Assembly (NCBI GenBank): GCA_003963125.1
Contig: RXJK01000038.1
Location: 1-51,559 of the forward strand
Direction: 5' to 3'
Length of the DNA: 51,559 nt
Origin: Hyphomicrobiales bacterium
GTDB lineage: Bacteria > Pseudomonadota > Alphaproteobacteria > Rhizobiales > Hyphomicrobiaceae
Positions 16,342 to 51,559 of this stretch are shown here, one piece after another. The position numbers and the translations under genes were made by a program. Under the pieces are notes generated by a model. It had not been told where the DNA came from and did no database searches. It saw nothing but the letters and a program-made list of their open reading frames with translations. Numbering within the stretch: the stretch's first letter is position 1; each line of letters begins with the position of its first letter.

Positions 16342-16458
16342 CTTGTCCCCCGTACTTTGTTCCCTGCATTGTGATGATGCGCTGCATTTTCCTTGCCACG
16401 CAAGGGCTCCAGCGCCACAGGTGCAGGGCCCGATGCAACGAGGCCACGCGATTAAGCA

Positions 16459-28452: not shown

Positions 28453-29031
28453 ATGGCATTCCTGAGGCTCACCGGCCCCGACCCCGACAGCGAGATCCGC
28501 GGCAACGCCGTGGTCCTGCGCCCGCCTGCCATGGGCGATTACGGGGCCTGGGCCCAGCTCAGGGCCCTCAGCCGCATGCATCTCGCCCTGTGGGAACCGG
28601 CATGGTCGCGGGACGAGCTGTCACGACCAGCCTTCCGCCGCCGCATCCGGCAATATCAGCGCGAGGCCCGCGACGACCAGGGATATGCCTTTTTTGTCGT
28701 GCACAAGGCGGAAGGGACGTTGCTTGGGAGCATAACTCTGAGCAACGTGCGCCGGGGGGTATCGCAGTCGGCGGCGGTTGGGTATTGGATCGGTCTGCCC
28801 CACACCAACAAGGGGTTCATGACGGATGCCGTCTGCGCGCTGGCAGGACATTCTTTTTCAAACCTGGGGTTGCATCGCCTTGAAGCTGCCTGCATGCCAA
28901 GCAATGCAGCGAGTGCGCGCGTACTCGAGAAGGCAGGGTTCAGGCGCGAGGGCATGGCGCGCAAGCTCTTGAAGATCGACGGTGTGTGGCAGGACCACGA
29001 CCTTTACGCGCGACTTTCTGACGATCCTTGA
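28453..29031 (+). CDS. GNAT-family N-acetyltransferase (RimJ/RimL-like)
   Basis: 192-aa protein. VGYWIGLPHTNKGFMTDA and the LHRLEAACMPSNAASARVLEKAGFRREG tail are typical of the ribosomal-protein acetyltransferase subfamily. Confidence 0.8.
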   Translation: MAFLRLTGPDPDSEIRGNAVVLRPPAMGDYGAWAQLRALSRMHLALWEPAWSRDELSRPAFRRRIRQYQREARDDQGYAFFVVHKAEGTLLGSITLSNVRRGVSQSAAVGYWIGLPHTNKGFMTDAVCALAGHSFSNLGLHRLEAACMPSNAASARVLEKAGFRREGMARKLLKIDGVWQDHDLYARLSDDP

Positions 29032-32000: not shown

Positions 32001-32915
32001 CGCAATCGTTTCCGCCCGGCCGAAACCGAAGAAGCTGCGGAGGAGGAAGCCACCGCACCGGCACCCTCCCAGGTCCCCGTGCCGCAGCCGCCGGCGGGCC
32101 CGCGTCCCGTTCACACGAACGGAAAGGGCGGAACGCCACCTGCGGGCGCACCGATCCCGATGCCGATGCGATCACCGGCCGTGGTCACCCAGGCCCAGCC
32201 GATGCAGACCGCGCCGCCCAAATCGCCGATGCCGGCCCAGGCGCCGATGCCGATGGGCATGCAGACGGGCTTCACGCGTCCTAGGGCGCCAGAGCCACCG
32301 CGCCAACCCGTAGCCATGCCGCCCGCGCCGGCGCCGAGCTTCGTCCCCCCGCCCCTGCCACCCGCGCCCGCAGGCGGCGCCGGCATGAGCTTGCCCGTCT
32401 CCTCGTCGGCCCCCGCGGTTCCGCCCGACCCGGCGAAGATGACGCCATTCGCCGGCTGGCCCATGGTCGGGGGCGACGCCGTCCCGACGACGCGGCCCGT
32501 AACGGGCCCGCCGGGCGCCCCACCGCTGCCCCAGCAGAGCGGATTGAAGACCCAGTCGCGGCTGCCGGGGGAAACGACAGGCGCGCCGCAAATGCCTCCG
32601 CCGCCCCCCCCCTTGGCACCGGTCAACACCGCTGCGCGCGTACTTGGCCAGCCCCCCAGTGCGGACCCGTCACGCGTGCAGACGGATCCGCCCACTGCGC
32701 ATCCGCGCCCGCCCGTGACGACGGTGCGGACATCGCCGCCGACGGCACCGCCGGCCGCACCGACAAAAGGTCCCGCGGAGGGAAATGGCGACTATCAGAA
32801 CCTGCCGATGAGCGTCGCTGAAAGCTTGGCGAAACTTGCCGGACGCCGTAGCACGCCGCCACCGCCGCCCGATCCGGATCCGTTTCCGCGCGCAGCCGAC
32901 GGCAGCAAGGGCTGA
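29028..32915 (+). CDS. 7TMR-DISM sensor / PAS / GGDEF / EAL protein with a long Pro-rich C-terminal tail
   Basis: 1295-aa ORF. The start is TTG 29028 (overlapping the previous stop) or in-frame GTG 29046. In order it has a signal peptide, an extracytoplasmic domain, seven predicted TM helices, a PAS domain (VWEWNARRDE...HPADRERF), a GGDEF domain with motif GGDQF, an EAL domain (GFEALVRW, DDFGTGYSSLSYL, KLDRSF, EGVET, GQGFYYSEP), and then about 320 residues of Pro/Ala-rich low complexity. Confidence 0.85.
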   Translation: MKGLRRVQGEAYAGGTQPAPQGAGFVRLALFALALLFSLAAAPSAHALKAIQVNNDLDRIEITALGEAHDGRGDVLQIETAPGADGVSGRMSVRAQTSGTNPSWFVFALTNTTDKPLERWLAADRYNTVGSGIVWPDLDARRVEAVTPSVGFVPERIKNDRADVFRLTLEPGQTVTFVAEMSSEHFTRLALWKSIEYEQKSRDRQLFNGIMLGITGLLAIFLTAVFAANHKAIFPAAAVFTWAVLAYLCVDFGFWHKLFNIKPEENAQYRAAAEATMAACLLLFTITFLRLNAWNSFLRMLLAMWVVAQLSLIAVAFLDPRLAATFARLSVVAIAGGGAALTVFLALAGQDRALSLIPTWTLLLVWLFGAAMIFTGRLGGDVMTFGLTAGLVMIVVLIGFTVTQYAFRSIEPMYGTQPGESQVRSLAIEGAGAAVWEWNARRDEINVSPVVEAMLGLETGRLSGKADDFGKHMHPADRERFKLLLGSVKERSGGEIHIEFRLRHTDNSYHWFELEAASIPTSDHRNLRCIGLMRDITDTKRAQERLMQDAVNDSLTGLPNRELFLDRLAIAAKRATLEPLVRPALLFVDIDRFKNANAAFGLVVGDSLLLTVARRLARNLGPQDTLARVGGDQFALLLLNQSDPRELAMLAEAVRRTLRAPINIAGQDVVLTASIGISIYDGPDDDPAELLREAEIAMYRAKRGGTDRIEIFSNEMKSEKGGRPELEQDLRRAIEKKQLKLLYQPIFYLPTETLAGFEALVRWDHPSLGTLNPSEFIPIAEESDLIEKLGSFVLAQAVQEAAKWQTELSRPDNPVFVSVNVSSRQLFKPDLVNEVRHILARAVLPKGSLRLEITESLAMENPEKATTVLRQLADAGAGIALDDFGTGYSSLSYLNQFTFDTIKLDRSFIAASGQDGGGSTILRSIVALSHELGKKVVAEGVETEDDVGFLRSIGCEYGQGFYYSEPMAERDVMQLLRVARKAERRIKKSLLRNRFRPAETEEAAEEEATAPAPSQVPVPQPPAGPRPVHTNGKGGTPPAGAPIPMPMRSPAVVTQAQPMQTAPPKSPMPAQAPMPMGMQTGFTRPRAPEPPRQPVAMPPAPAPSFVPPPLPPAPAGGAGMSLPVSSSAPAVPPDPAKMTPFAGWPMVGGDAVPTTRPVTGPPGAPPLPQQSGLKTQSRLPGETTGAPQMPPPPPPLAPVNTAARVLGQPPSADPSRVQTDPPTAHPRPPVTTVRTSPPTAPPAAPTKGPAEGNGDYQNLPMSVAESLAKLAGRRSTPPPPPDPDPFPRAADGSKG

Positions 32916-37458: not shown

Positions 37459-40116
37459 TTAGCGGCGGGATGAAAGTCGTTTTATCGCGTCGACGAGCGG
37501 GCGCTCGGCGGCATCGTAACCGGCCCACGGATCGGAACGACCGAGCAGCTTCGCAGCCGTGCGCACCGTGAAACGCTTGGGGTCGAGGTCTGCGCGAACC
37601 TTGCTCCACGCCAGCGGCATCGACACCGTCGCGCCAGGCCGTGCGCGCGGTGACAGCACACCGACGGCCGTGGCCGTCCGATCGTTGCGCAGGTAGTCGA
37701 GGTAGATGCGCCCCTCGCGCTGCTTCTTGGCCATGTTGATGAGATAGCGGTCTGGCGCGTCCGCTGCCATCGCCGCGCACACCGCCTGGGCGAACATCTT
37801 CGCCTCGTCCCAACCGATCTTGTCCTTGGCACGCACCTCGATTGGCGTGACGACGTGCAACCCCTTGCCGCCCGTAGTCTTGCAGAAGCTTGCGAGCCCG
37901 ATCGCCGAAAGCCGCTCGCGCATTTCGCGTGCCGCTTCGACGACGCGCTTGAACTGCACATCCTCCGCCGGATCGAGATCGAACACGAGACGGCCCGGGA
38001 CTTCCGGCTCGCCTGGCGCGCAGTTCCAGGGATGGAATTCGACGGCTGCGATCTGCGCCATGGCGACGAGCGCCTCGACGCTGTCGATCTGGATGTAGGC
38101 CTTCTTCTCGCCCGCGACCTTCACGCGCGTCACGAGGTTCGACATACCGAGCGCCACATGTCGCTGGAACCAGCGCTCGCCCTCGATGCCGTCCGGGGCT
38201 CGGATGAGCGAGCACGGCCGCCCCTTCAGGTACGCGACGAGCGGCTCACCCACCTCCTCGAGGTAGGCGGCGAGATCCAGTTTCGTCACGGCCGGCTCAC
38301 TGCCGGACGCTGGCCAAAGCTCCTTCTCGGGCTTCGAAATCGTGGTGCCGGCGACGGACGATCCGTTCTGTTTGGAGTGTTGCGGCATGGCAGCGGGCGC
38401 GCTCGCTTTCACCGAAACGAGACCGGCCTTCGGCGGTGCGACGGGCCGCTCGGCCTGGACCTCGCGTGCCGGCTTGTCGAGGCGCAGGCCCTTGAAGGCA
38501 GCTTGGCGCACCATCCCACCGCCCGTCCAGCCCGCGAATTCGATCTCGCATACCAGGTTTGGCCGCACCCAGTTGGTATCGGCGGTCTTGCGCGGGGCTT
38601 CCTTGCCCGTGAACGGGCTCGACGACGTCGCATTCGCCTTCAACTGGCGCAGGATGTCCTGCGTGTTCGAGCCGTTGAAGCCGGTGCCCACCCGCCCGAC
38701 GTGCATGAGCTTGTCGCCGTCGTACACGCCGACGATGAGCGAACGCAGCGTGCGCGCGCTGCCACTCCAGCCCCCGATGACGACCTCGTGGCCGAGACGG
38801 CACTTGGTTTTGACCCAGTTGTCGTTGCGGCCCGAACGATAGGGACCGTCCGCCTTTTTGGAAACGATGCCTTCGAGCTTCAGGCGCGCAGCGGACTCGA
38901 GAACCGCCTCTCCAGGCTGCGCAAGATGCTCGAGGTAGCGGATGCTCGTCTCGGATTTGCGGCCCGCTTTTTCGAGGAGCGCCTGCAAGCGCTGCTTGCG
39001 TTCGATGAGCGGCAATCCTCGCAAATCCTGGCCGTCCGCGAACAGCAGATCGAACGCGAAGAAGACGAGTTCCTTCGATTGACCTTCGGAGAGTGCGACC
39101 TGCAGCGCGGCGAAGTTCGGCGCGCCCTCGTGGTCGAGCGCCACCACCTCGCCATCGATCAGGCCGTCGGGAAGATGCTGCGCAGCCCGCGCGATGGCCG
39201 CGAACTTCTCCGTCCAATCGAGCCCTTTCCGCGTCCGCAGCACGGCGCGGCCGTTCTCCACGCGCAGTTGCACGCGGTAGCCGTCGAGCTTGATCTCGTG
39301 GACCCAGTCGCTCCCGGCCGGCGGCCGCGCGCTGGTGGCACAAAGCTGCGGGGACACGAAGCCTGGCATGGCGACCTTCGCCCCGCGCGTCGCGGAGGTG
39401 GATTTCGCAAGTTTCGCCCGCGGTGACTTTGCGGCGGTCGCGGCCGGCGCCGCCTTCGGCCGCGAATTCCATACGGCATCGGGTTCGAAAGCTCTCGCGC
39501 CGCCCATGATGAACGGTTTCGGCGCGCGGCCCTTGCCCGCGGCGATCTGAGCCATGCTGCGACCCGAAGCGACCGATCGATCGTCCTCGGCAGCGGAAGG
39601 ATCGGCGCCCGCGTGGTCGTCGCCGTGCTTGATCAGCAGCCAGTTGGTCCGCTTGCCGCCAAACTTGTCGCCGCGCATGCGCACGAGCACCCAGCTGCCC
39701 TTGAGCTTGGAGCCCGCAAGCGTGAACTTCAGTTCGCCCTTCTTCAGAGCCTGCGCCGCCTTGCCCGTCCCTTCCGGCAGCCAGAAGCCCCGGTCCCAAA
39801 GCATCACGGTGCCGCCGCCGTATTCGCCCTTGGGGATCGTACCTTCGAAATCGCCGTAGGCGAGGGGGTGATCCTCGACTTCGACTGCCAACCGCTTTTC
39901 ATGCGGATCGAGCGACGGTCCCTTGGTCACGGCCCAGGACTTGAAAACGCCGTCGACCTCGAGCCGCAGATCGTAGTGCAGGCGCGTCGCATCGTGCTTC
40001 TGGATTACGAAGCGCGGATACTCGCCGGGCTGCGGCCCCTGATCACCCTTGGGTTCCGCGGTCTTGGTGAAGTCGCGCTTGGCGCGGTAGAGGGAAAGGC
40101 TTTTCTTGACCGTCAT
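37459..40116 (-). CDS. ligD: ATP-dependent DNA ligase LigD (phosphoesterase-ligase-polymerase)
   Basis: 885-aa protein. It has an N-terminal 3'-phosphoesterase domain ([18 protein letters not shown]), a central ligase domain with the adenylation lysine motif EIKLDGYR, and a C-terminal LigD polymerase/primase domain ([11 protein letters not shown]). Confidence 0.92.
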
Positions 40117-40143: not shown

Positions 40144-40362
40144 CTAATGAAGTTTCGTCGTCTTGGTCTTTTGCGCCAGCATGCCACGGCGCAATTGTCT
40201 CAGCCACCACAGCCGTGCCTGTCGATCCCGATAGAGCTGCAGGGCGGACGCACTCATGACGTTGACCGCCGCCGAGCCGCGGCCGCGGGTCTGCGCGCGG
40301 TTCATCGTCTCGATGCGCGCGATCATTTCCTCGATCTCGTTGACCAGAGCCGTTTCATCCAT
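40144..40362 (-). CDS. hypothetical 72-aa protein upstream of ligD
   Basis: Internal ATG of ORF 40144..40536. It translates to MDETALVNEIEEMIARIETMNRAQTRG...LWWLRQLRRGMLAQKTKTTKLH. The stop is 27 nt before the ligD start. The SD is weak and no domain is recognisable. Confidence 0.4.
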   Translation of the reverse strand: MDETALVNEIEEMIARIETMNRAQTRGRGSAAVNVMSASALQLYRDRQARLWWLRQLRRGMLAQKTKTTKLH

Positions 40363-40439
40363 GGCGGACACCCCCAACGCTTGTACTTGAGGGGTTAATA
40401 CGTTGCAGGGCATTCCGGTTCCCGATGTGGCGGCCTGCG

Positions 40440-41213
40440 TCAGGCGCGCTTTTCCAAGGGCGCCGGGGCAAGCGCACGAAGCAGACGTGCGAGGGCGGAG
40501 CGAACCTCGATGGTGCTCGCAAAGTCCGCATCGCACGAGGGGAAATACTCACCCGCGACCGTAAAAGCGGCACCGCCCTTGCTTTTCGCGAAGGCAATCG
40601 CGGGCTCATCACCGCGATCATCGCCGATGACGAGGGGAACGCGCTCGTGGAACGGACCGCTTTCGAGAAACTTCGCGATCGACGTTGCCTTCGAGAAGCC
40701 GCGCGGGATGATTTCGTAGATCATGCGCCCGCCCTTGAGCTGATACGCCGGCCATTCGCGCACCACGTCCGACAGGATCGTGCCGAGAAACTCGACGGCG
40801 TCCGGCACCTTGCGGTAATGCACCGCGAGCCCGACGCTTTTGTCCTCGACGAGCATCGTATCCGACGGACCGATCGCCTGCCGCACGGCCGTCGTCAGGC
40901 CCTCGGGAATGCGCGGCGCGAGAATTTCGACGTGATCCCCCGCGGCGAGGCGGAGTTCGGAACCATGCACGCCGGACGCCGGCAGGCGCAACGGCCGCAG
41001 CATGCCGTCAACGGTCTTGATCTCGCGCCCTGTGTTGAGCGCGAGCGCGCCCCCGAGGGCTGCACTCAGCCCCGCGAGGAGGCCCGGCAGCTCGGCGGGA
41101 ATGCGCACGCTCTTGGGATCGGGCGCCACGTCGATCAGCGTGCCGTCGATATCGAGGAAGACCGCCCACTTGCGGGGATCCGCGACCACCACCTCGTCAA
41201 ACGCGCGCGACAT
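40440..41213 (-). CDS. otsB: trehalose-6-phosphate phosphatase
   Basis: The internal ATG at 41213 gives a 257-aa HAD phosphatase (FLDIDGTLID, GDDRGDE). Confidence 0.85.
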   Translation of the reverse strand: MSRAFDEVVVADPRKWAVFLDIDGTLIDVAPDPKSVRIPAELPGLLAGLSAALGGALALNTGREIKTVDGMLRPLRLPASGVHGSELRLAAGDHVEILAPRIPEGLTTAVRQAIGPSDTMLVEDKSVGLAVHYRKVPDAVEFLGTILSDVVREWPAYQLKGGRMIYEIIPRGFSKATSIAKFLESGPFHERVPLVIGDDRGDEPAIAFAKSKGGAAFTVAGEYFPSCDADFASTIEVRSALARLLRALAPAPLEKRA

Positions 41214-41242
41214 ACTGGGCTTCCGGTCGGAGGTCTTGAGGA

Positions 41243-41974
41243 TCACACGAGCGGGGTCGTGCGCTCGACGGCTGGAACGGAAGCGAAATGCCGGTCGAAC
41301 GCCGGCTCCCACAGCCGCACGCCACCGGTGAGCCCGGCCGTGTTGCTGACGAGTTCGACATTCTTCGGCAACTCGATCGAGACCTTGCGCGCGTTCCCAC
41401 CGCCGACGTAGAGCCGCTCGCAGGCCGTGAGGCGCAGCACATCTGTGACCGTCTTGAGGAGGCGTTGGCTCCACGCCTCGAGCCCGAGGGTGTTGAGGGC
41501 CTCGTTGCCGACGTAGCTGTCGAGACCGAGTTCGAGATGCAGGAGCCATTCGCGGTCCCGATAGACGGCGCACCCGACGCCGGTCCCGAGCGTGACGACC
41601 GCTTCAAGGCCCGGACCGCGCACCACGCCGAGGCCCTGCACGGCGGCATCGTTCAGCACGCGCACCGGCCGCCCAAACGCCCCCGACAAGGCTTCGACCA
41701 GATCGAACTCCGCCCAGACGGGGGTGCCCAGGTTCGGCGCGGTGACGACGCGCGCGCCGCGCACGACGCCGGGAAAGCCGACGGAGATGCGATGAAAGTC
41801 ACCGATGCCGGCGACCATGTCTCGAATGGCGCGCAGGACGCACTCCGGCGGGGACGGGCGCGGCGTAGACGCGATCACCGGCGCGCACAGGAGCTGCCCA
41901 TTCCCATCGACACGCGAGGCCTTGAGCTTCGTCCCCCCGATGTCGATGGTGAGTGTGACAGGCGCCTCGCTCAT
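41243..41974 (-). CDS. ROK-family glucokinase, polyphosphate/ATP glucokinase (PpgK)-like
   Basis: 243-aa protein (254 aa if it starts at ATG 42007). The motifs TIDIGGTKLKA, VGFPGVV, VLNDAAVQGLG, LGTGVGCAV and YVGGGNARK, and the short length, fit PpgK-type ROK kinases. Confidence 0.7.
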   Translation of the reverse strand: MSEAPVTLTIDIGGTKLKASRVDGNGQLLCAPVIASTPRPSPPECVLRAIRDMVAGIGDFHRISVGFPGVVRGARVVTAPNLGTPVWAEFDLVEALSGAFGRPVRVLNDAAVQGLGVVRGPGLEAVVTLGTGVGCAVYRDREWLLHLELGLDSYVGNEALNTLGLEAWSQRLLKTVTDVLRLTACERLYVGGGNARKVSIELPKNVELVSNTAGLTGGVRLWEPAFDRHFASVPAVERTTPLV

Positions 41975-42174
41975 GTCTGCATGCTCATGGGTCTTTGCTG
42001 ACGTCATCGCTGGTCGCGGGCATCGCGAACCGACTGCCGGTGCACGGGCCCTTGCGCAAGGATAGCGCGTTGCCCGCGGGTGAGAATACGGAAATTCAAT
42101 GATCGTCCCCGTCCTTGGTTTCGAACAGGGCGCGCCTTTCGCCGGCACGCGGACATTCCGCATGGCGCACCCCA

Positions 42175-43620
42175 TCACACGGGCGCGATACCGCGGCCGG
42201 CCATCGCACGTTGCGGGTTCGATTGATTCAATTTTCGCAAGGCCTGCTCGATCAACTCGGACGGGGGCCACCCGCGCGGATCGTCGTCGTCGCGCAGCCC
42301 CTCGAGCGCCCGCAGGAACGAGCGGCACCATGTGCCGACGTCACTCCGCCGCACCCGCGCCATCAGGGCCCGATGCCGCGCGATCCGCTCCTCCAACCCC
42401 ATCTCGAGCGCATCGCGCATGACGTCCGCCACGGCGTCGATGCTGTAGGGGTTGACGATCATGGCCTCTTCCAGCTCTTCCGCCGCCCCGGCGAAGCGGG
42501 AGAGGACGAGCACGCCGGGGTCGGCGGGATCCTGCGCGGCGACGAATTCCTTGGCGACGAGGTTCATGCCGTCCCTGAGCGGCGTCACCATGCCGATCCG
42601 CGACGACCGGTAGAGGTCCGCGAGCCGGCGCCGCGGGGCAGATCGGTGGATGTAGTGGATCGGCACCCAGTCGATCTCGCCGTAGCGGCCGTTGATGGAC
42701 CCCGCGAGGCTCTCGAGCTGCTGGCGGATGTCGGTATAGGCCCCGACGTTCTCGCGCGTAGGCGGCGCGATCTGCGTCAGCACCACCTGCCGCCGGTATC
42801 GCGGATACTTCTCGAGGAAGGTGCCGAACGCCTTGAACTTCTGCGGCAGGCCCTTGGTATAGTCGAGCCGGTCGACGCCGATCATGCGCAGCACGCCACG
42901 CCCCTGCACGACGGGGCTCTTGCGCTTGGCGTGCGCGAAGTCCTCGACGTCGATGCCGATAGGGAAGCTCGCAACGCGCACGAGGCGGTCGAAAAGCCGG
43001 ATGCGCCCGTCGGGCACTACGCGGCCGAACACGCCATTGGTCATGTAGTCGATGAGATTGGAAACGTCCGCCTTGGTCTGCAGCCCGACGAGGTCGTAGG
43101 CGGCAAGACCATGCGCGAGCTTCTCGTGCTCGGGGATCGCCATGAACGTCTGCCACGGCGGGAAGGGGATGTGCAGGTAGAAACCGACGGAATTCTTGAC
43201 ACCCAGCTTGCGCAGTTCAGTGGCGAACGGGATCAGGTGGTAGTCGTGCACCCAGATGATGTCATCGGGCTTGAGCATAGGCGCCAACAGCGACGCCAGC
43301 CGCTTGTTCACGTTCTCATACTGCTCGTAGTACCCCGCTTCGAACTCGGCGAGGTCCAGGCGATTGTGAAACACCGGCCACAGCACCGAGTTGGAGTAAC
43401 CAAGATAATACTGCTCGTGCTCGCTCTCGGTCAGCGCGACGGTCGCGATCTTTCCTTCGATATGCGGCGTCGTCGCGTCGTCGCGCACGTCCCCGCTCCA
43501 GCCGAACCAGAGCGCCGGCCGCGTGCGTACGATATCGGCAAGCGCAACGGCAACGCCGCCGGCCTGCGCAGCCTGCTTCGGATCGAGCACACGGTTGGAA
43601 ACGAGTACGATGCGGCTCAT
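42175..43620 (-). CDS. otsA: alpha,alpha-trehalose-phosphate synthase (UDP-forming)
   Basis: 481-aa GT20 protein ([38 protein letters not shown]). Confidence 0.92.
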
Positions 43621-43669: not shown

Positions 43670-43694
43670 AACGTGTCGCAGCGTCCAAGGTTCC
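43670..43694 (-). promoter_or_regulatory. EcfG/SigT-type general-stress-response promoter upstream of otsA
   Basis: The minus strand reads GGAAC-CTTGGACGCTGCGACA-CGTT, a perfect GGAAC-N16-CGTT. It lies in the 99-nt GH15-otsA spacer, about 50 nt upstream of the otsA ATG. Confidence 0.65.
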
Positions 43695-43719
43695 AATCGG
43701 ATACAGCGCGCCCAAGGGC

Positions 43720-45546
43720 TTACTCGGGCGACCACGCCTCCTGCCAGCTGCGCGAGATGATGCGCGCACTGTTGATGATGCCGGCCATGGTGTAGGTCTG
43801 CGGAATGTTGCCCCACAGCTCGCCTGTCGTCGGGTGAATGTCCTCCGAGAGCAGCCCGAACGAATTTCGCCGCGCGAGGAGATCGGCGAGAAGATCGCGC
43901 GCCTCGTTGCGCCGGCCGATTTCGGACAAGGCATCCATGTACCAGAACTGGCAGACGAGGAACGCCGTCTCCGGCGCGCCGAAATCATCCTCGGCCGTGT
44001 AGCGCATGATGAAGCCGTTACGGTTGAGTTCCCTGCCGATCACATCGCACGTCTTGATGAAGCGCGGATCGCGCGCGTTCATGAGGCCGAGCTCCGGCAG
44101 CAGCAGCACGCTCGCATCGAGTTCCGACCCGCCGAGTGTACCCGCGATGCAGCCGAGCTTGTCGTTCCAGGCCTCCTCGAGGATGCGCTTGCGCAAGCGC
44201 TCCGAGTGATCCCGCCAGAAGGCTGCGCGATCGGCCAAGCCAAGCTTCGCCGCGATCCTCCAGAGCCGGTCGCACGCCACCCAGCACATCGTGGCGGAAT
44301 GCGTGTGCACGCTTTGCCGGCCGCGATATTCCCACAAGCCCGCATCCGGCTCGAAGGCGAAGCGGACGGCTTGCATCCCGAGCGGCTCGAGAAGGCGGAA
44401 CAGCGCCGCGTCGCCCATCACGGGCAGGCGCTCGTCGATGAACATCTGGGCCGCGCCGAGAATGACGCTGCCATAGGCGTCGTGCTGAAGTTGCTCGGCA
44501 GCCTGATTGCCGATGCGTACGGGCCCGTGCCCACGAAAGCCCGCGAGCTTCGACGCGATGTACTCTTCCGTGTCGTCGCCCGGAACGATGCTGTAGACGG
44601 GCTTCAACGGCCGGTCGGTTTCGATGGCGATGTTCGTGATGTAGTGGATGTAGTCTTCCATCGTCTGCGTCGCGCCGAGCCGGTTCAGCGCCTTGATCAC
44701 GAAGAACGCGTCCCGCAACCAGCAGAAGCGATAATCCCAATTCCGCGAAGTGCCGGGCGCCTCCGGGATCGACGTCGTATGCGCGGCGATGATCGCGCCC
44801 GTCTCCTCGTAGTTGCACAGCTTAAGCGAGATCGCCGCGCGGATGACGTCCGCCTGAAATTCCAGCGGCACGGCCAGCGACCGCACCCAGTTCATCCAGT
44901 AGTCCCGCGTGCGCTGGATGAACTCCTGCGTCACGGTGCTGACGGAGGCTTCGAACGGCTCGTCCGGCCCGATCACGAGATGCACGGGCCGGATCAGCGC
45001 GAACGGCGTTTCCTGCACGATGTAGCTGAGCGCCGCGTCGGTCGTGACGCGGAGCGCTTCAGCGCCGCCAGCGTAGCGGATATGGTTCGAACCCGCGACG
45101 CGGCTGGTGAAAGGTTCGCCGTAATTGAAAGTCGGCCGGATGCGAATGCGGACCCGCGGCACGCCCGACACGTGCTCGATCCGCCGATAGAGCTGCGGCG
45201 GGTTGAAGACGCGCTCGAAGCGGGCGAAGCGCGGCGCGAAGTCGATAATGCGGACGCTGCTGCCGTCCTGGGCCGTGAGAACCGTCTCCAGCACTGCGGT
45301 ATTCCGCATGTAGCTCGACTGCGCCGACACCTGGTTTTCGAGCACGACGTCGGCAAAGCCCTTCTCCTCGTCGCCGGCGATGAGCCTGGAGAAGACAGGA
45401 TCGGAGTCGAACCTGGGGAAGCACCACCAGGAAATGCGCGCATTCCGGTCGACGAGGGCTGCGATGCGGCAATTGCCGATGACGGCGTATTCGAGGCCCC
45501 GCTCAGGGCCTTTGTCCGCGCTCGCGCGGTCCGTCTTTGCGGCCAT
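43720..45546 (-). CDS. glycoside hydrolase family 15 protein (glucoamylase/trehalase-like)
   Basis: The internal ATG at 45546 is preceded by GGGAGG and gives a 608-aa protein. It is GH15-like throughout (AHTTSIPE...[23 protein letters not shown]). Confidence 0.88.
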
Positions 45547-45649
45547 GATATCCCCTCCCGCTTGCCGGCTGTGCCAAGGCTGTCTTACCGAACGCGCGAA
45601 ACCGCTCGCCGGTTTCCGGCCGCGAAGGCTCAACGCCTCCGCCACGACT

Positions 45650-45674
45650 GGAACCACGCCGTGGCGACGGCGTT
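45650..45674 (+). promoter_or_regulatory. EcfG/SigT-type general-stress-response promoter upstream of the DUF1328 ORF
   Basis: GGAAC-CACGCCGTGGCGACGG-CGTT is a perfect GGAAC-N16-CGTT, 32 nt upstream of the ATG at 45706. Confidence 0.65.
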
Positions 45675-45705
45675 GACGTTGCAGTCAAGAGCGAAGCGGA
45701 GACGG

Positions 45706-45882
45706 ATGATGGGCAATCTTTTGCACTACGCGATCGTATTTCTCGTGATCGCACTGATCGCAGCGGCCATCGGGTTCGGCGGCGTGGCGGGCGTCGCGAT
45801 GGAAGGCGCCAGGATCCTGTTCTGGGTCTTTATCGTGCTGTTCGTGGTGTCGCTGATCGCCAACTTCGTGCGGCGGGCCTGA
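45706..45882 (+). CDS. DUF1328 (UPF0391) small membrane protein
   Basis: 58-aa ORF forming the tail of the spurious long ORF 43834..45882. It translates to [58 protein letters not shown], with two TM helices and the family-typical GFGG. GGAGACGG lies upstream. Confidence 0.75.
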
Positions 45883-45888
45883 GGGAGG

Positions 45889-45914
45889 GAGAGGCGCGCT
45901 CCGGCGCGCCTCTC
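45889..45914. terminator. perfect 11-bp GC-rich hairpin between convergent genes (candidate bidirectional terminator)
   Basis: GAGAGGCGCGC (45889..45899), loop TCCG, GCGCGCCTCTC (45904..45914). There is no strong U-tract on either side. Confidence 0.5.
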
Positions 45915-45930
45915 GCTTCTCGATTGCGGA

Positions 45931-46233
45931 CTAGCGACGATGGTGGCCTCCGCCTCCGGCGTGCCGATAGCCGCCGCGCCAGCCGCCGCGTCCACCGCCC
46001 CACCCGTCATAGAAGCCGATACTCGCGTAGATGCCGGGTCCATACCCATAGCCGTAATCATCGTCGTCGCCGTAATAGCTCGAATAGCCGTAGTAACCGA
46101 CGGGGCCGTAGCTGTAGCTCGAACGATAGCCACGGCGGCCGTAGTCGCCATCCCAATCATCGCAGGCAAACGCCGCGGAAGACGCCGTCAGAACGGCGAC
46201 TGCCGCGAGTGAAAGTGTCCATAGTTTACGCAT
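45931..46233 (-). CDS. secreted Gly/Tyr/Asp-rich 100-aa protein
   Basis: Internal ATG at 46233. The signal peptide is MRKLWTLSLAAVAVLTASSAAFA. The mature part is about 75 aa of GY-rich low complexity (YGRRGYRSSYSYGPVGYYGYSSYYGDDDDYGYGYGPG...GGGRGGWRGGYRHAGGGGHHRR). Confidence 0.6.
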   Translation of the reverse strand: MRKLWTLSLAAVAVLTASSAAFACDDWDGDYGRRGYRSSYSYGPVGYYGYSSYYGDDDDYGYGYGPGIYASIGFYDGWGGGRGGWRGGYRHAGGGGHHRR

Positions 46234-46284
46234 CGCGTTTTGTGCTCCGGTTTCTTGCTGCCCCGCCTGGACCGAGATCCGGAA

Positions 46285-46309
46285 AACCACCCCCACACCA
46301 TGCAGTTCC
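46285..46309 (-). promoter_or_regulatory. near-consensus EcfG-type promoter upstream of the Gly/Tyr-rich ORF
   Basis: The minus strand reads GGAAC-TGCATGGTGTGGGGGT-GGTT, one mismatch in the -10 (G for C). It is 52 nt upstream of the ATG at 46233. Confidence 0.4.
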
Positions 46310-46359
46310 GACCTTCGGCTGCTCCGGTCCGTCCCACTTCGCACACAGTCAGAAACTGG

Positions 46360-46384
46360 CGAACCGGCGCATCGGCTCTGCGTT
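46360..46384 (+). promoter_or_regulatory. near-consensus EcfG-type promoter upstream of the 91-aa ORF
   Basis: CGAAC-CGGCGCATCGGCTCTG-CGTT has one mismatch at the first -35 base. It is 36 nt upstream of the ATG at 46420. Confidence 0.4.
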
Positions 46385-46419
46385 ATGGCAGCCACCGAAA
46401 AACAGGATGCGAGGGACAC

Positions 46420-46695
46420 ATGCAGACCGATCTCGAGTCGTGGCTGGCCGCGGAAGAGAGCGCGGGGAAGGGCGATCTGCGCTCGGCGAACGTCATGCGC
46501 ATGTGTGCGCTGGCGAGCGTGCTGGCGGCGGCTGAAAGCGCGATCCTTGTCGGCGATGCGATCCAGGCCAAGCGCAAGCTCGAGAAGCTCAAGCGCTATA
46601 CGGCCATGACGCTCGCGCGCCTGACGGATACCGGCGGCAGTGCGCCGGCCGCGGTGGGAGAGGATCAAACGATCACCACGCCGACGGGAGCTTGA
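46420..46695 (+). CDS. hypothetical 91-aa protein
   Basis: Internal ATG with GAGGGA 5 nt upstream. It translates to MQTDLESWLAAEESAGKGDLRSANVMRMCALASVLAAAESAILVGDAIQAKRKLEKLKRY..., which is predicted helical with no recognisable domain. Confidence 0.4.
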   Translation: MQTDLESWLAAEESAGKGDLRSANVMRMCALASVLAAAESAILVGDAIQAKRKLEKLKRYTAMTLARLTDTGGSAPAAVGEDQTITTPTGA

Positions 46696-46882
46696 CCGGG
46701 CGCGAGCACTACTCGCCGGTATGTTGTTACCGCATTCCGCCACTCGAACGTTTGCACACTCACAGCACGTAAAACATAAGGAGAGCAATTCGCTGGCTGC
46801 ATGTCTTTCTTAAATGACGTAGAGCAGATCCGTGCGCTATCGTTCTCGTGATGCCGGGTAACGATGGCCGGGCGCTCTGACC

Positions 46883-47302
46883 ATGAGGAAGCCCATGCAC
46901 GCCCGTGTCACGCCGTTCGGTGAAGTGCGCGTCCTCCTTGTCGAGGACGAGCCCCTGATCCTCCTCGATTGCGAGGCGATCCTGGCGTCCCTCGGCGTCG
47001 GCCACGTGCAAAGCGCGACGAGCGTGCCGGAGGCAAAAGCGCTGCTTGACGCGGGGCACACCTTCGACGTGGCGATCCTCGATATCTCCCTCGGCGGCAC
47101 GTCGAGCTTCGAACTCGCGGGCGAGCTCGGCAATCTGCAGGTCCCTGCGGGTTTCATGAGCGGCTATAGCTCCCAGGACATCCCGGAGGCGTTCCGCGGC
47201 CGACCCTACATCAACAAGCCGTTCGCCCAGGGGCAGCTCAAGTCGCTCCTCGAGAGTCTCATCCAGGACCGCATGCGGGAAGCGAAGAGCGGCGCTGTCT
47301 GA
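46883..47302 (+). CDS. single-domain response regulator (receiver only)
   Basis: 139-aa protein with the acidic pocket VEDE, the phospho-acceptor in VAILDISL, S in FMSGY and K in INKPF. There is no output domain. The exact start is uncertain (ATG 46883 or 46895). Confidence 0.8.
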   Translation: MRKPMHARVTPFGEVRVLLVEDEPLILLDCEAILASLGVGHVQSATSVPEAKALLDAGHTFDVAILDISLGGTSSFELAGELGNLQVPAGFMSGYSSQDIPEAFRGRPYINKPFAQGQLKSLLESLIQDRMREAKSGAV

Positions 47303-47409
47303 CGTCGCTCCAGCCGGACCTGGCTAGAGCGCCCCTTTCGGCCCACCGGACTGGCGCCGGAGCGGCCGGAGATCCCTTGCGGCGCCGATGTCCTGAAGCG
47401 TACCTCCCG

Positions 47410-47434
47410 GGAACCATGACCTCCACGCTCCGTT
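47410..47434 (+). promoter_or_regulatory. EcfG/SigT-type general-stress-response promoter upstream of the DUF1236 ORF
   Basis: GGAAC-CATGACCTCCACGCTC-CGTT is a perfect GGAAC-N16-CGTT, 25 nt upstream of the ATG at 47459. Confidence 0.65.
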
Positions 47435-47458
47435 GGCTAGGCGGAGACGACCACAAAC

Positions 47459-48544
47459 ATGGAGAGTATCATGAGTACCCATAAGTTGCTCGCTGGCGTC
47501 GCACTCGCCGCCCTCCTCAGCACCGCCCCCGCGATCGCCCAGGAAATGAAGAAGGGCGATACGCCATCTGGCGGCGCCGGCATGGGCGCCGGTCAGAGCG
47601 GTCCTTCCGCCCAGCCTCAGCGCAACGAGACCTCACCCTCCCATACGCCTGGCGCAGCCGGTAACCACGGCACGACCACCCCTAATACCAACAAGGGTCA
47701 GGCTCAGCGCCAGGAAGAACCCGGCAAGTCCACCACCCGCGGCGCCAGCGACCACACGCAGAAGGGCACCGAAAAGGGTCACACGTCGAAGAATAACGCC
47801 GAGAACAAGGCTCAGCCCGGCCAGGATCACAACAAGGCCGCAGAGCGTCCGACCCAGGACCACAACAAGAATGCGCAGACGAAGGGCAACGACACAGACC
47901 GCAATGCGGCCACCAATCGCAGCACGCAGGACCGCAAGGACGTTCAGCAGGACAAGTCCGCCACCAATCAGAACGGCGCGCGCGGCAACGTCCAGCTCTC
48001 CGAGCAGCAGCGCACGGATCTGCATCGCGACATCCTGAAGGAGCGCAACGTCAACCGGACGAACGTGAAGGTCGACATCCGCGTCGGCGCCCGCGTTCCG
48101 CGCAACATCCACCTCGCCGTCCTGCCGGCGGCCGTCATTTCCGTCGTCCCGGCCTATCGCAGCTACCGCTACTTCGTCGAGGGTGACGAGATCTGCATCG
48201 TCAATCCGACGACGTACGAAGTTGTCGACGTCATCACCAGCCGCAGCACCGTCGCGCAGGGTCCCAGCAATCACAACGCCGGCCTGACGCTGACCGAGCA
48301 GGAACGCATGATCGTTCTGCGCGAAGTCGACCTCGGCGCCAGCAACAGCACGATGGGCCTGGGTGCCGTCACCGAAGGCGCGAGCGTGCCCCGCAGCGTC
48401 GAGTTGCTGAACATGCCCGTGACGGTGATCGACCGCATTCCGAAGCTGCAGGGCTACAAGTACTTCGTGGCCGAGCAGCGGGTCGCCATCGTCGATCCCA
48501 ACGGCAGCCGGGTCGATCTCGTCATCGACGCGCACGACAAATAG
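47459..48544 (+). CDS. secreted DUF1236-repeat protein with a long hydrophilic low-complexity region
   Basis: It has a signal peptide (LLAGVALAALLSTAPAIA), then about 150 aa rich in Q/N/K/T/D/G, then two DUF1236-like modules (VPAYRSYRYFVEGDEICIVNPTTYEVVDVI and IPKLQGYKYFVAEQRVAIVDPNGSRVDLVI). The start is ATG 47459 or 47471. Confidence 0.8.
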   Translation: MESIMSTHKLLAGVALAALLSTAPAIAQEMKKGDTPSGGAGMGAGQSGPSAQPQRNETSPSHTPGAAGNHGTTTPNTNKGQAQRQEEPGKSTTRGASDHTQKGTEKGHTSKNNAENKAQPGQDHNKAAERPTQDHNKNAQTKGNDTDRNAATNRSTQDRKDVQQDKSATNQNGARGNVQLSEQQRTDLHRDILKERNVNRTNVKVDIRVGARVPRNIHLAVLPAAVISVVPAYRSYRYFVEGDEICIVNPTTYEVVDVITSRSTVAQGPSNHNAGLTLTEQERMIVLREVDLGASNSTMGLGAVTEGASVPRSVELLNMPVTVIDRIPKLQGYKYFVAEQRVAIVDPNGSRVDLVIDAHDK

Positions 48545-48570
48545 CTTCAGCCGAGCTGGACAGAAGCGAT

Positions 48571-48598
48571 GCGCCGGGTTCGCCCGGCGCATTTTTTG
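48571..48598 (+). terminator. intrinsic terminator after the DUF1236 gene
   Basis: GCGCCGGG, loop TTCG, CCCGGCGC, followed by ATTTTTTG. Confidence 0.85.
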
Positions 48599-48667
48599 TG
48601 GCGAACGCCCCATTTCGGTCCGAAACCCCTGGTGCCGTGCCCATGAGCACAGCGCGGAGGGGACGCA

Positions 48668-49255
48668 TTGCGCCTGAGGAACATCATCGCCGTCGTCACG
48701 TGCGTCGGTACCGCGCTGGTATCCACCGCCGCCACGGCCACCACGCCCGTCGACGTACACGACAACGGCACTTTCTTCGAGGCTGCGGGGCGTAAGGTTT
48801 CCTGCGGCCGCAACATCCGCACGATCCTCGATCCGCAGCTTCCCAACCTCGGGATCGCGACGCGCAATCTCCTCGTGATGAACCCACGCCTCCTGCAGCG
48901 ACAGCCGGAGAACGTGCGGCTGTTCGTCTTCCATCATGAGTGCGGGCATCACCACGTCGGCGGCGACGAGTTGGGGGCCGATTGCTGGGCCGTGCGGCAG
49001 GGCGTCGCTTCGGGCTGGCTGCACGCACCGGATCTGAAGGACATCTGCCGCTCGTTCGGCAATACGCCGGAGACGCCGACCCATCCCGCCTCAGCCCGCC
49101 GCTGCCAGGCCTTGGCCACCTGCTTCGCCCGCGCGGAAAAATCGCTCCGTCCCGCCCCTCAACAGTCGGTGGCCCTGTTGAGACCGCCAGCCCTCGTACG
49201 CGAAGGCTATCTGGCGAGTGCGGAGGACGTTCGTGCAAGCCAGCGACTGCGCTGA
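48668..49255 (+). CDS. secreted hypothetical protein with an HExxH motif (putative minimal zinc peptidase)
   Basis: TTG start. It has a signal-like N-terminus (MRLRNIIAVVTCVGTALVSTAATA) and the motif FVFHHECGHHHVGGDELGADCWAV, i.e. HExxH followed by E..AD as in small M48/MA-clan-like proteins. I cannot name a family. Confidence 0.5.
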   Translation: MRLRNIIAVVTCVGTALVSTAATATTPVDVHDNGTFFEAAGRKVSCGRNIRTILDPQLPNLGIATRNLLVMNPRLLQRQPENVRLFVFHHECGHHHVGGDELGADCWAVRQGVASGWLHAPDLKDICRSFGNTPETPTHPASARRCQALATCFARAEKSLRPAPQQSVALLRPPALVREGYLASAEDVRASQRLR

Positions 49256-49328
49256 CACGCCGGTCTCCGCCAGCGAATTGCCAAAGTATGCGCGTTGCAA
49301 ATGTCAGCGCAATGCTTTGCGTGCTGGC

Positions 49329-49353
49329 GGAACCGGCCCCCCATGTCGACGTT
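49329..49353 (+). promoter_or_regulatory. EcfG/SigT-type general-stress-response promoter driving a short non-coding transcript
   Basis: GGAAC-CGGCCCCCCATGTCGA-CGTT is a perfect GGAAC-N16-CGTT. It lies in the 228-nt spacer between the HExxH ORF and the iron-permease-family ORF. Confidence 0.6.
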
Positions 49354-49359
49354 GATAAG

Positions 49360-49466
49360 GCAAGTGATGCCGATCGGACAGGATCGGCGAATTCAGTGAT
49401 GAGAGCTGGTTCCCTCCCTCTCCACTGAGGAGCGGTGCGCCCCCCTCGCACCGCTCCTTTTTATTT
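49360..49466 (+). ncRNA. candidate EcfG-dependent small RNA (about 105 nt), or a terminator-containing leader
   Basis: It is bounded by the promoter at 49329..49353 and the terminator at 49429..49466. It contains a perfect 7-bp hairpin (GCCGATC-GGACAG-GATCGGC, 49369..49388) and a single-stranded CU-rich tract UUCCCUCCCUCUCC (49410..49424). No ORF longer than 10 codons is present. Confidence 0.5.
49429..49466 (+). terminator. strong intrinsic terminator
   Basis: GGAGCGGTGCG (49429..49439), loop CCCCCCT, CGCACCGCTCC (49447..49457), then TTTTTATTT. Confidence 0.85.
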
Positions 49467-49483: not shown

Positions 49484-49822
49484 ATGGATCCGGGACGGGC
49501 AACAACAGCACGGCGCGCGCTTACCCAGCTTGGGACAATGGCGGCGCACCCCATCGCATTCCTATCGGTCGTGCTCTACGGCGTCTCGTGGGCGATCTTC
49601 TCGCCCGAGACGCTCGAATGGCACGGGCTTGCGACGCTCGTGACCTGGTTTATCGCACTTTTGATCCAGCGCGCCGAGCACCGCGATACGCAAGCCCTTC
49701 ACGCCAAGCTCGACGAGCTCTTGCACGCCCAGTCCGCGGCACGGAATTCCCTGACGCACATCGACGAGGCGGAGCCGGAAGAGATCGAAGCCCACCGCAA
49801 GGCCGAGGGCCGGCGCGGCTAG
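49484..49822 (+). CDS. low-affinity iron permease family (PF04120-like) small membrane protein
   Basis: 112-aa protein. The hydrophobic segments (HPIAFLSVVLYGVSWAIF and LATLVTWFIALLIQ) followed by RAEHRDTQALHAKLDELL match the family pattern (...Q....D..A...KLDEL...). Confidence 0.65.
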   Translation: MDPGRATTARRALTQLGTMAAHPIAFLSVVLYGVSWAIFSPETLEWHGLATLVTWFIALLIQRAEHRDTQALHAKLDELLHAQSAARNSLTHIDEAEPEEIEAHRKAEGRRG

Positions 49823-49838: not shown

Positions 49839-51398
49839 TCAGGGGGCCCTCTCCCCGGGAAATGCCGTGCGCGAGATGATACGGCCCGCGCCCGCTGCTT
49901 GCGACAACACCGTACGCCAATTCCAGCGCTCTTCGCTCACGTCCCGCAGGCAGCGCTGCAGGCGCGATCGCTTCGCCTCGGGCAGCGCTTCCAGCATTAA
50001 CGCCCAAAGCGCGTCGATATTGTAGGGCTGCCCGTCGGCGCGAACCGGAATGAGCTTCGCCGGCGGCAGCACGAGGTCGCGCGCCACGGCATCGAGCGCC
50101 GCCCGAATGGTCTGCGCCTTTGCGCTCGTCGGGGTCGCGAGATCGATGGGCGGTGCCCAGTCCTGGAAGGGGCGCAAGTTGTCGATATGGGTCAGCACCG
50201 CGAGGACCGGCGGCGGCGCGCGTCCTTCGGTGGCGATCGCGGTGCGCAGGCCATCGAGCGCCGCCTTGTCGACGGCACGTGCAGCCCGCGTCGCCGACAG
50301 CACCCACAGCACCATGTCAGCATCGCGGAAGGCCTTGAGGAGCGCCGCCTGTCCCGGCTCTCCGGGCTCGAGACCCGGCATGTCGATGATCAGCGCCTCG
50401 GGGGCGCCCTCGCGCGTGACGCGATAGGCCGTTGCCATCGTTGTCGACGGCACTACGTCCACGGCAGCCTCCATGTTGCCCGTCAGCGCGTTCACGACCG
50501 AGGACTTGCCGGCACCGCTCTGCCCGACGACGATGATGCGGATGGGCTCCGCCGCGATGTCCGCTGCGACGCGCGCATCCCGCGTCGTCGCGGTGCTCCG
50601 ATGTCGTTCCAGGCGTTCGCTGCGTACCCGCAGGCTGCCGCCGTAGAGATCAATGGCCGCTTGGCCGACCTCCTTCACGAAGGCTTCCGTGAGTCTACGC
50701 GCAATATGTTCGCGCCCCATGTCGTAGATCTGCCGCGTATAGCGCTCGCGCAATTCCTGGGTCGCGGCCGAGATCGGATTGACGAGGCGCACGAGCCGCC
50801 AGATGTCGTAGCCCTTCTCGACCAGCGGAATGACCGTGCGCCAGCGATAGACCCACATGATCTGCGCGACCGTCACCCGATCGCCGAACGGCAGGCTCTT
50901 CTCCGAGAATTCCCGCAGGCCCACGCTCGCCTGCTCGATAACCGCGAAGACTTCCGGCAGTGTGAAGCGCAGCAGCGGATCGCTCGTCTCCGGATGCATG
51001 CGGTTGGCCACGAGCGTGATCGTCTCGAGACCGAGATCGAGAAGCTTGTCCGTGCCCGAAAGTCGGCTCGTATCGGCGGTCCGCGCAAAGGCCAGCACAT
51101 CCTTCCAAGCCTGTTCCTGGCGCGCGTTCCAGATCGCCTTGGGAACCTCGTCGGCCGCCTCGCTTTCGAGCGGCTGCGCGAGCGGTCGCAACAGCCGCTG
51201 CAGGAGCAGGAAAGCCAAGCTCGCCGCGACGAACGTCGCGCCCGCCCAGTAGAGCACGTAGCCCTTCTGCCAGAGCCAGATCGAGCCGAGCGGAATGAGG
51301 CTCAGCGCCGGCAGCAGCAACGCGAGCGCCAATAGGACAAGCGCAGGCACCCGCGTGCGCCCGCCGCCCCGAGCCCTGCTGTTTCGAAAACTGATCAA
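49839..51398 (-). CDS. membrane-anchored P-loop GTPase (MMR_HSR1-like G domain)
   Basis: 519-aa ORF. It has two N-terminal TM helices, G1 GQSGAGKSS, G3 DMPG and a G4-like THID. The TTG start at 51398 overlaps the stop of the upstream ORF (TCTTGATC). Confidence 0.7.
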   Translation of the reverse strand: MISFRNSRARGGGRTRVPALVLLALALLLPALSLIPLGSIWLWQKGYVLYWAGATFVAASLAFLLLQRLLRPLAQPLESEAADEVPKAIWNARQEQAWKDVLAFARTADTSRLSGTDKLLDLGLETITLVANRMHPETSDPLLRFTLPEVFAVIEQASVGLREFSEKSLPFGDRVTVAQIMWVYRWRTVIPLVEKGYDIWRLVRLVNPISAATQELRERYTRQIYDMGREHIARRLTEAFVKEVGQAAIDLYGGSLRVRSERLERHRSTATTRDARVAADIAAEPIRIIVVGQSGAGKSSVVNALTGNMEAAVDVVPSTTMATAYRVTREGAPEALIIDMPGLEPGEPGQAALLKAFRDADMVLWVLSATRAARAVDKAALDGLRTAIATEGRAPPPVLAVLTHIDNLRPFQDWAPPIDLATPTSAKAQTIRAALDAVARDLVLPPAKLIPVRADGQPYNIDALWALMLEALPEAKRSRLQRCLRDVSEERWNWRTVLSQAAGAGRIISRTAFPGERAP

Positions 51399-51559
51399 GA
51401 GGGGACTCTCGCAGAAGCCGTATCGATGGGATGCTTCTTCGACAGCGTGAAGGCCTCCGAGAGCGCTTCCCGGTAGACGCGGGCGATCTCCTCGGCCCGC
51501 ACACTGCCGCGCCGCCGCGACAGGTAGTAGGCCGCGGCCTTCCCCATGGCGAAGGTCGT
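51395..51559 (-). CDS. 3' end of a gene running off the window (DUF697-like C-terminus?)
   Basis: The open frame on the minus strand from the window edge reads ...TTFAMGKAAAYYLSRRRGSVRAEEIARVYREALSEAFTLSKKHPIDTASARVPS*. The stop overlaps the TTG start of the GTPase gene. The family call is tentative. Confidence 0.35.
   Translation of the reverse strand, partial: TTFAMGKAAAYYLSRRRGSVRAEEIARVYREALSEAFTLSKKHPIDTASARVPS

Follow-up and report, generated by a model that had tools for sequence, protein, structure and literature searches.

A predicted general-stress-response gene cluster with EcfG-type promoters and a structured RNA in a Hyphomicrobiaceae lineage

The closest described counterparts of the locus considered here, a gene cluster on contig RXJK01000038.1 (assembly GCA_003963125.1) of a Hyphomicrobiales bacterium of the family Hyphomicrobiaceae, of which a stretch of 51,559 nt was analysed (hereafter the window), are the regulons of sigma-EcfG (ECF15; SigT/RpoE2), the ECF (extracytoplasmic function) sigma factor of the alphaproteobacterial general stress response (GSR). 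Published regulons supply both the EcfG consensus and the distances of its sites to start codons (PMC6599016). Trehalose genes, Ku, PRC-barrel and small secreted proteins belong to the EcfG regulon of Sphingomonas melonis, Ku being one example of the non-homologous end joining (NHEJ) genes that are GSR targets in other alphaproteobacteria (PMC6599016); otsA and otsB are under EcfG control in Bradyrhizobium diazoefficiens (PMC8092242); and RpoE2 motifs of Sinorhizobium meliloti precede 23 small RNAs (sRNAs) as well as the SMa0113/0114 operon, so that the receiver Sma0114 is encoded in an RpoE2-dependent operon (PMC3616915). The receivers SdrG and MrrA feed into GSR signalling (PMC6599016, PMC5964349). 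EcfG-dependent sRNAs of the GsrN type, whose C-rich loops are exposed, are described as widespread and as mostly located close to the GSR locus (PMC5869019).

The segment of the window from ~40.4 kb to its right end is, judging from its sequence, probably a chromosomal gene cluster of this regulon. It resembles the described regulons in its GGAAC-N16/17-CGTT sites within 100 nt of starts, and the cargo of the cluster in this genome and its relatives, comprising trehalose synthesis, CsbD, small membrane and secreted proteins, single-domain receivers and an sRNA candidate, is likewise shared with them (PMC6599016, PMC8092242, PMC3616915). It differs in that the regulon is here a prediction for an uncultured Hyphomicrobiaceae lineage, in that the targets are unusually clustered, ~10 kb holding four strong sites and as many as five weaker ones, and in that trehalose genes stand beside the core regulators in several relatives.

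An exact search of both strands for GGAAC-N16-CGTT returned four perfect matches, at 43694..43670 (-), 45650..45674 (+), 47410..47434 (+) and 49329..49353 (+), identical in number and coordinates to those of an original prediction made from the letters alone. In 100 dinucleotide-preserving shuffles such matches averaged 0.44 and numbered at most 2, none of the shuffles reaching four; GGAAC-N17-CGTT had no perfect match in the whole window. The -35 element reads GGAACC at each of the four sites. On a gene map built from the frame statistics of GC content at third codon positions (GC3) and from Pfam, all four are intergenic and correctly oriented, intergenic DNA making up 9.9% of the window, and all point, as had been claimed, at a gene start or transcript: the end of the -10 element is 49 nt away from the otsA ATG, 31 nt from that of the DUF1328 gene, 24 or 36 nt from the start of the DUF1236 gene and ~6 nt from the 5' end, itself conserved, of a terminator-bounded RNA. 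The earlier argument that their clustering is not accidental also holds, four uniformly placed points falling in so short a span with P = 0.005; if all four are taken to be intergenic, the probability that all lie within the 1198 of 5086 intergenic bases belonging to this island is ~0.003. No sigma70-like consensus was seen in a scan of the island's intergenic regions. Each of the four sites thus combines the GGAAC and CGTT elements, 16-nt spacing, an intergenic position and a start or transcript within about 100 nt. The limits originally drawn around the island (43670-49466) proved too narrow, as further variant sites occur at GH15 and orf72-ligD and the cluster has a right-hand extension in the relative L004.

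Motif conservation, which the original prediction had proposed as a check, bears the expectation out. Exact-protein lookups with OtsA and the DUF1328 protein retrieved a Logan contig that is identical and JGI sequences of close relatives in which the gene order is the same. A genome scan with the GH15 protein encoded beside otsA gave 80 loci at 64-86% identity (relatives are given L numbers); nearly all belong to Hyphomicrobiaceae metagenome-assembled genomes (MAGs) or Hyphomicrobium isolates, and most are uncultured MAGs. Of 65 GH15-otsA intergenic regions, 57 have the otsA promoter site, 33 of them as a perfect GGAAC-N16/17-CGTT and 24 with one mismatch, mostly as nGTT at -10, and its distance to otsA is similar across loci. 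Cultivable relatives that keep this site include Hyphomicrobium zavarzinii ATCC 27496 (L059) and Hyphomicrobium sp. NDB2Meth4 (L077). The other three sites are kept in the closest relatives: the DUF1328 site in L002, L003, L004 and L034 as GGAACC...CGTTGACG with a diverged spacer; the DUF1236 site in L004 as GGAAC and CCGTTGG blocks between diverged flanks, with a site also before the L034 orthologue; and the RNA promoter in L004, L034 (N17) and L085, again with diverged spacer and flanks. L034 has no Gly/Tyr-rich open reading frame (ORF), orf91, receiver or orf195, and retains all four promoter-gene units. The DUF1328, DUF1236 and RNA units have so far been found only in uncultured MAGs.

The regulators themselves are present in the family. 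Locus L082 encodes PhyR (PhyR_sigma2, PhyR_sigma-like and Response_reg domains), NepR (PF18557) and an ECF sigma factor (Sigma70_r2/r4), all confirmed by Pfam, in a module at positions 113-1930, and in the divergent region between phyR and nepR-ecfG one strand reads GGAAC-N17-CGTT and the opposite strand GGAAC-N16-CGTT. A divergent autoregulated promoter pair at this place is known from studied species, and the pair in L082 thus calibrates the motif for Hyphomicrobiaceae. By tblastn, core GSR genes lie no more than 10 kb from GH15-otsA in at least six loci (L082, L083, L067, L048, L023 and L005, the last with its module at 15437-16252). The PhyR-NepR-EcfG module, whose presence elsewhere in the genome the original prediction proposed to confirm, is thus found in the family, and not in the window itself. 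In L082 and L067 the module adjoins two kinases, a giant hybrid kinase with HAMP repeats and one of the HWE type that bears a FATGUY-like receiver at its C terminus.

Conservation, the calibration of the motif in L082, the linkage to the module and the cargo thus support the reading as a GSR regulon first put forward in the original prediction, and we infer the following course of events. Under stress, phospho-PhyR would bind NepR and free sigma-EcfG, whose holoenzyme would start transcription about 6-9 nt downstream of CGTT at the four strong promoters. The first would drive otsA, the ROK kinase gene and otsB and hence trehalose synthesis, the second a small membrane protein, the third a secreted hydrophilic protein, and the fourth the ~105-nt structured RNA and also, through read-through, a membrane protein of PF04120. 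GH15 is probably expressed at a lower, likewise EcfG-dependent level from degenerate sites (nGAAC or nGTT); with less certainty, such sites may also drive the Gly/Tyr-rich protein, orf91 with the FATGUY-type receiver, and orf72-ligD.

The fourth promoter (GGAACC-N16-CGTT at 49329..49353, +) precedes a structured RNA of ~105 nt (49360..49466, +), delimited by its predicted fold and a terminator scan, and the gene of a small membrane protein of 112 aa (49484..49822, +) belonging to PF04120 ('low affinity iron permease'-like; Pfam Iron_permease 1e-13), which would be 94 aa long if its start is at 49538. The RNA has a predicted minimum free energy of -55.6 kcal/mol (z = -6.9) and is predicted to consist of a variable hairpin, a hairpin exposing UUCCCU(CC), the exposed stretch being UUCCCUCC, and an intrinsic terminator that is strong in the window and in L085, with an 11-13 bp GC-rich stem followed by UUUUUAUUU. 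In an alignment of four sequences the first hairpin keeps its pairing despite changes of sequence and length, and the second hairpin and the terminator are invariant; the lengths range from 107 to 117 nt and therefore leave no reading frame. Of the two matches of a metagenome scan with the 20-nt core of the RNA, L085 is a true homologue and L084 a chance match, and a covariance model found no clear copies beyond the four sequences in 1.45 Mb of related loci. The terminator-bounded RNA noted at the outset thus has a stable predicted fold, a terminator and conservation in four sequences; besides a free sRNA, it may be a PF04120 leader.

Most likely the RNA ends at the strong terminator and acts in trans through the exposed stretch, which is anti-Shine-Dalgarno-like, in the manner of GsrN-type sRNAs, the read-through fraction forming the leader of the PF04120 mRNA. 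A less probable alternative is that it is no trans-acting sRNA at all but a cis-acting 5' leader or attenuator setting EcfG-driven transcription into PF04120. Distant PF04120 homologues in Hyphomicrobium loci have GGAAC-N17-CGTT directly upstream and no RNA element, and because of this arrangement the RNA can be placed in a former 5' untranslated region (UTR) of the gene; only 17 nt lie between its end and the first candidate start codon, with no other promoter visible there, and the poor U-tract of the L034 copy favours read-through. Against a purely cis-acting role stand the strength of the terminator in the window and L085, the location of the best conservation in an exposed CU-rich stretch with no alternative-pairing element, and the lack of a match to any Rfam riboswitch or leader family; moreover, a promoter-hairpin-terminator unit with UUCCCUCC in L007 stands alone beside nepR with no PF04120 gene after it. 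The two roles can coexist, and the RNA may be the leader of PF04120 rather than, or as well as, a free sRNA. Two candidate pairings were rejected, namely a 10-nt complementarity at the DUF1328 stop codon, which is not kept in relatives, and pairing with the GH15 ribosome-binding site (about -25 kcal/mol), which is no better than with unrelated genes.

Compared with known sRNAs, the RNA shares with GsrN of Caulobacter and Rhizobiaceae an EcfG-type promoter, an intrinsic terminator, a C-rich exposed stretch as the best conserved part and a GSR cluster setting (PMC5869019), to which a stable predicted fold may be added. The likeness is one of features, as scanning Rfam at E<=10 revealed no sequence relationship and the matches of the covariance model are confined to four close sequences; unlike GsrN, the RNA lies in the 5' region of the PF04120 gene and does not stand alone. 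The sole Rfam match in that scan is to suhB/MmgR (alpha-r8, RF00519), with which the RNA has in common an unpaired GUUxCCUCCCU right before the Rho-independent terminator. The match spans the full model; however, at 24.6 bits it is below the gathering threshold of 41, and its E-value of 0.0038 applies to a 311-nt search only and loses significance when the whole window is searched, where a scan at gathering thresholds gave no suhB/MmgR, riboswitch or leader family at the RNA. The 5' half also differs, and MmgR/SuhB is not EcfG-dependent, SuhB being under a LysR-type regulator and contributing to stress resistance in Sphingopyxis (bioRxiv 10.64898/2025.12.09.693200). It is tempting, though tentative, to see in the RNA a new lineage-restricted family of EcfG-driven riboregulators, born in the PF04120 5' UTR through gain of a terminator and acting in trans by an anti-Shine-Dalgarno UUCCCUCCC loop; as part of this proposal, the RNA may be distantly related to MmgR and so link an MmgR-type seed to GSR control.

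The unit in L007 (16552-16960) deserves separate mention: otsB is directly followed by a nepR paralogue, and next come GGAAC-N16-AGTT, an 89-nt RNA with a z-score of -7.9 and the unpaired stretch already mentioned, and a terminator. It may represent a second GSR-linked sRNA type in Hyphomicrobiaceae. An antitoxin/PIN-like gene pair lies beyond it.

Returning to the assignment of the whole cluster to the GSR, many ECF groups share AAC at -35 and CGT at -10, and a different ECF sigma factor with a similar GGAAC/CGT consensus might read the four sites as part of a narrower envelope- or osmotic-stress regulon. Besides the shared elements, this explanation can point to the lack of a sigma factor gene in the window and to ECF-like matches 28-30% identical to EcfG in L035, L040, L046, L049 and L050. 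It is nonetheless improbable, since within the family phyR and nepR-ecfG are themselves flanked by the identical full motif, with N16 and N17, at least six loci show physical linkage of the GSR core genes to GH15-otsA, and the cargo (CsbD, trehalose genes, DUF1328, a FATGUY-type receiver and small secreted proteins) is typical of EcfG regulons (PMC6599016, PMC8092242, PMC3616915).

Several observations nevertheless weigh against a GSR cluster as outlined above. The motif alone cannot name the sigma factor, because GGAAC...CGT-like elements are common to several ECF groups, and no PhyR, NepR or ECF sigma factor was found in the 51.5-kb window by Pfam or by tblastn with the L082 proteins; the module in the source genome is accordingly deduced from relatives. 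Two ORFs of 196 and 253 aa at 15.3-18.6 kb were considered as regulators by size only and, by eye, are neither sigma-factor- nor PhyR-like. Full synteny of the cluster is confined to close relatives (L004, partly L034), and the 'island' is therefore a lineage-specific arrangement; a horizontally transferred island was rejected, as the composition is not atypical. On the side of the RNA, its closeness to PF04120 and the poor L034 U-tract have already been noted, and no conserved target was found. Both one-mismatch sites of the original prediction, described below, are conserved in part only. Finally, a flank-aware weight matrix trained on 56 orthologous otsA promoter sites gave five matches above 12 bits in the window, namely the four perfect sites and 42122..42098 (-), against 2.2 expected (P about 0.08); being no better than chance, it was set aside as evidence of enrichment. 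The one-mismatch class is barely enriched (21 observed, the four perfect sites included, vs 11 expected), and its members are scattered throughout the coding sequence of the window. Because neither the weight matrix nor this class is significantly enriched, the case rests on the exact consensus, its position and its conservation.

That the matches are mere chance in GC-rich intergenic DNA, with no regulatory role, would suit a motif of only nine fixed bases, a weight-matrix scan short of significance and one-mismatch sites in coding sequence, but is highly improbable given that none of 100 shuffles yields four perfect matches, that all four are correctly oriented within so small an intergenic fraction, and that -35 and -10 blocks are kept while spacers vary across dozens of genomes, a conservation that by itself already contradicts chance.

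Within the predicted GSR cluster, the trehalose operon occupies 40440..43620 (-) and comprises otsA (GT20; 42175-43620, -; Pfam Glyco_transf_20 2e-118, 396 bits), a ROK-family glucokinase-like gene (41243-41980, -; Pfam ROK 2e-15) and otsB (40440-41210, -; Pfam Trehalose_PPase 2e-23, 83 bits), in the same order as in relatives, behind the perfect promoter P_otsA (GGAACC-N16-CGTT, 43670..43694, -). A GT20 trehalose-6-phosphate synthase and a trehalose-phosphatase are thus encoded together, as befits the OtsA-OtsB pathway. A GAAAC-N16-CATT sequence between otsA and the ROK gene (42098-42122, -), the fifth-best weight-matrix match, could be a weak internal promoter of the operon; GGAAG-N16-CGTT at 41224..41200 was rejected as a promoter, as it overlaps the otsB start.

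Upstream of otsA lies the gene of the 608-aa GH15/trehalase-like glycoside hydrolase (43720..45546, -; Pfam Glyco_hydro_15 7e-45, TREH_N 9e-9). Its candidate promoter is the one-mismatch variant GAAAC-N17-CGTT (45591..45616, -), 44 nt before the ATG. In relatives, nGAACC-N16-CGTT recurs 13-56 nt upstream of GH15, with at most one mismatch in 29 of 79 loci compared with 10 of 79 on the control strand, which makes it probable that the window sequence at 45616..45591 is a promoter of this class, though a weaker one. To the left of otsB, a candidate variant promoter GGAACC-N16-GTAT(T) (40397..40422, -) precedes orf72 (72 aa; 40144-40362, -; known from its translation) and ligD (NHEJ ligase; 37459-40116, -; domains taken from the gene table of a relative). 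Its -35 and -10 blocks are the same in L002, where half of the spacer has changed.

The middle of the cluster opens with P_DUF1328 (GGAACC-N16-CGTT, 45650..45674, +), a perfect match 31 nt before the ATG of the gene for a YtjA/UPF0391-type small membrane protein of 58 aa (45706..45882, +; Pfam DUF1328 1e-14). DUF1328 (YtjA) is under sigmaS control in Salmonella (PMC5437024). Next come two divergent units whose candidate promoters are the one-mismatch sites of the original prediction, both present as described, at 46309..46285 (-) and 46360..46384 (+), and conserved in part, in L003 and L004. The first (GGAAC-N16-GGTT, 46285..46309, -) faces a 100-aa Gly/Tyr-rich secreted protein with an N-terminal signal-like segment (45931..46233, -; translation, no Pfam match), also encoded in L002, L003 and L004; GGAAC is kept in L003 and L004, the -10 varies between GGTT, AGTT and ACTT, and the spacing is altered in L004. 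The second (CGAAC-N16-CGTT, 46360..46384, +) precedes orf91 (46420..46695, +), whose translation is helical and of no Pfam family, with orthologues of 85% identity in L003 and 65% in L004; here the -10 GCGTT is kept in L003 and L004, and the -35 is out of register.

The receiver gene beside orf91 (46883..47302, +; Pfam Response_reg) encodes a single-domain response regulator of 139 aa, probably of the FATGUY (SdrG/Sma0114) type. Its best solved relatives are Sma0114 (2LPM, 4e-14) and SdrG (5IEB, 6e-12), followed by PhyR receiver domains. It differs from the FATGUY receivers SdrG, Sma0114 and MrrA in a degenerate motif, VPAGFMSGY, of which PAGFMSGY matches 4 of 7 fixed positions of the beta4-alpha4 signature PFxFATG[G/Y], in the lack of an adjacent kinase, in its pairing with the 91-aa orf91 and in the weak match of its own promoter.

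P_DUF1236 (GGAACC-N16-CGTT, 47410..47434, +), a perfect match 24 or 36 nt before the start, drives in our model a secreted DUF1236 protein (47471..48544, alternative start 47459, +; Pfam DUF1236 5e-21 in two stretches), laid out as a signal peptide, a long hydrophilic low-complexity region and two DUF1236 repeats; a terminator scan places a terminator after the gene at 48568-48593 (+). In Rhizobium phaseoli, stress strongly induces a DUF1236 gene (PMC8909678). The last gene before the RNA, orf195 (48668..49255, +), encodes by translation a predicted secreted protein of no Pfam family with an HExxH-like motif, HHECGHH, and has an orthologue of 61% identity in L004. No motif site occurs upstream of orf195, which may be co-transcribed past the DUF1236 terminator or have its own unrecognised promoter. 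The identities originally given to otsA, the DUF1328 and DUF1236 genes, the Gly/Tyr-rich ORF, the 91-aa ORF and the receiver all hold by Pfam and translation.

At the right edge, two adjacent genes of membrane-associated GTPases (49839-51559, -; the first at 49839-51398, the second running off the end), with MMR_HSR1/dynamin-like matches in relatives, follow the PF04120 gene. L004 is the closest genome that is fully syntenic, and its cluster goes on beyond the GTPase genes, which there separate it from motif sites before a CsbD gene, the gene of a 312-aa membrane protein and a small membrane ORF, with a second FATGUY-like receiver. From these motif-bearing genes it follows that the cluster runs past the right end of the window.

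The comparison yields a prediction of part of the GSR regulon in Hyphomicrobiaceae, a soil and water family with few genetic studies. An EcfG-type promoter on trehalose synthesis, demonstrated experimentally in Bradyrhizobium, emerges as a deeply conserved feature of the family, several lineages of which also have phyR-nepR-ecfG in physical linkage with the trehalose genes. Among proteins of unassigned function, DUF1328, DUF1236, PF04120 and the Gly/Tyr-rich secreted protein stand out as candidate stress effectors, and the RNA is a concrete candidate sRNA of apparent 5' UTR origin. The current understanding of the GSR is left unchanged by these findings, the candidate RNA being the only part that might prove a new variant.

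The remainder of the window is of a housekeeping character, with glycolate oxidase, polyamine genes, ethanolamine lyase, a cox cluster, thrC, a GGDEF-EAL protein and guaA. At 7723-7800 (-) a riboswitch of the SAM-II type (SAM_alpha, RF00521), scoring 81 bits, lies upstream of a gene for a pyridoxal-phosphate-dependent enzyme of Cys/Met metabolism (6425-7663, -). Among the housekeeping genes, a protein of 425 aa, whose PcfJ-like match is weak, and beside it an ORF of 120 aa and of no family (15979-17736, -) may be a mobile-element remnant, and a signalling protein of 1295 aa with 7TMR-DISM, PAS, GGDEF and EAL domains is encoded at 29028-32915 (+).

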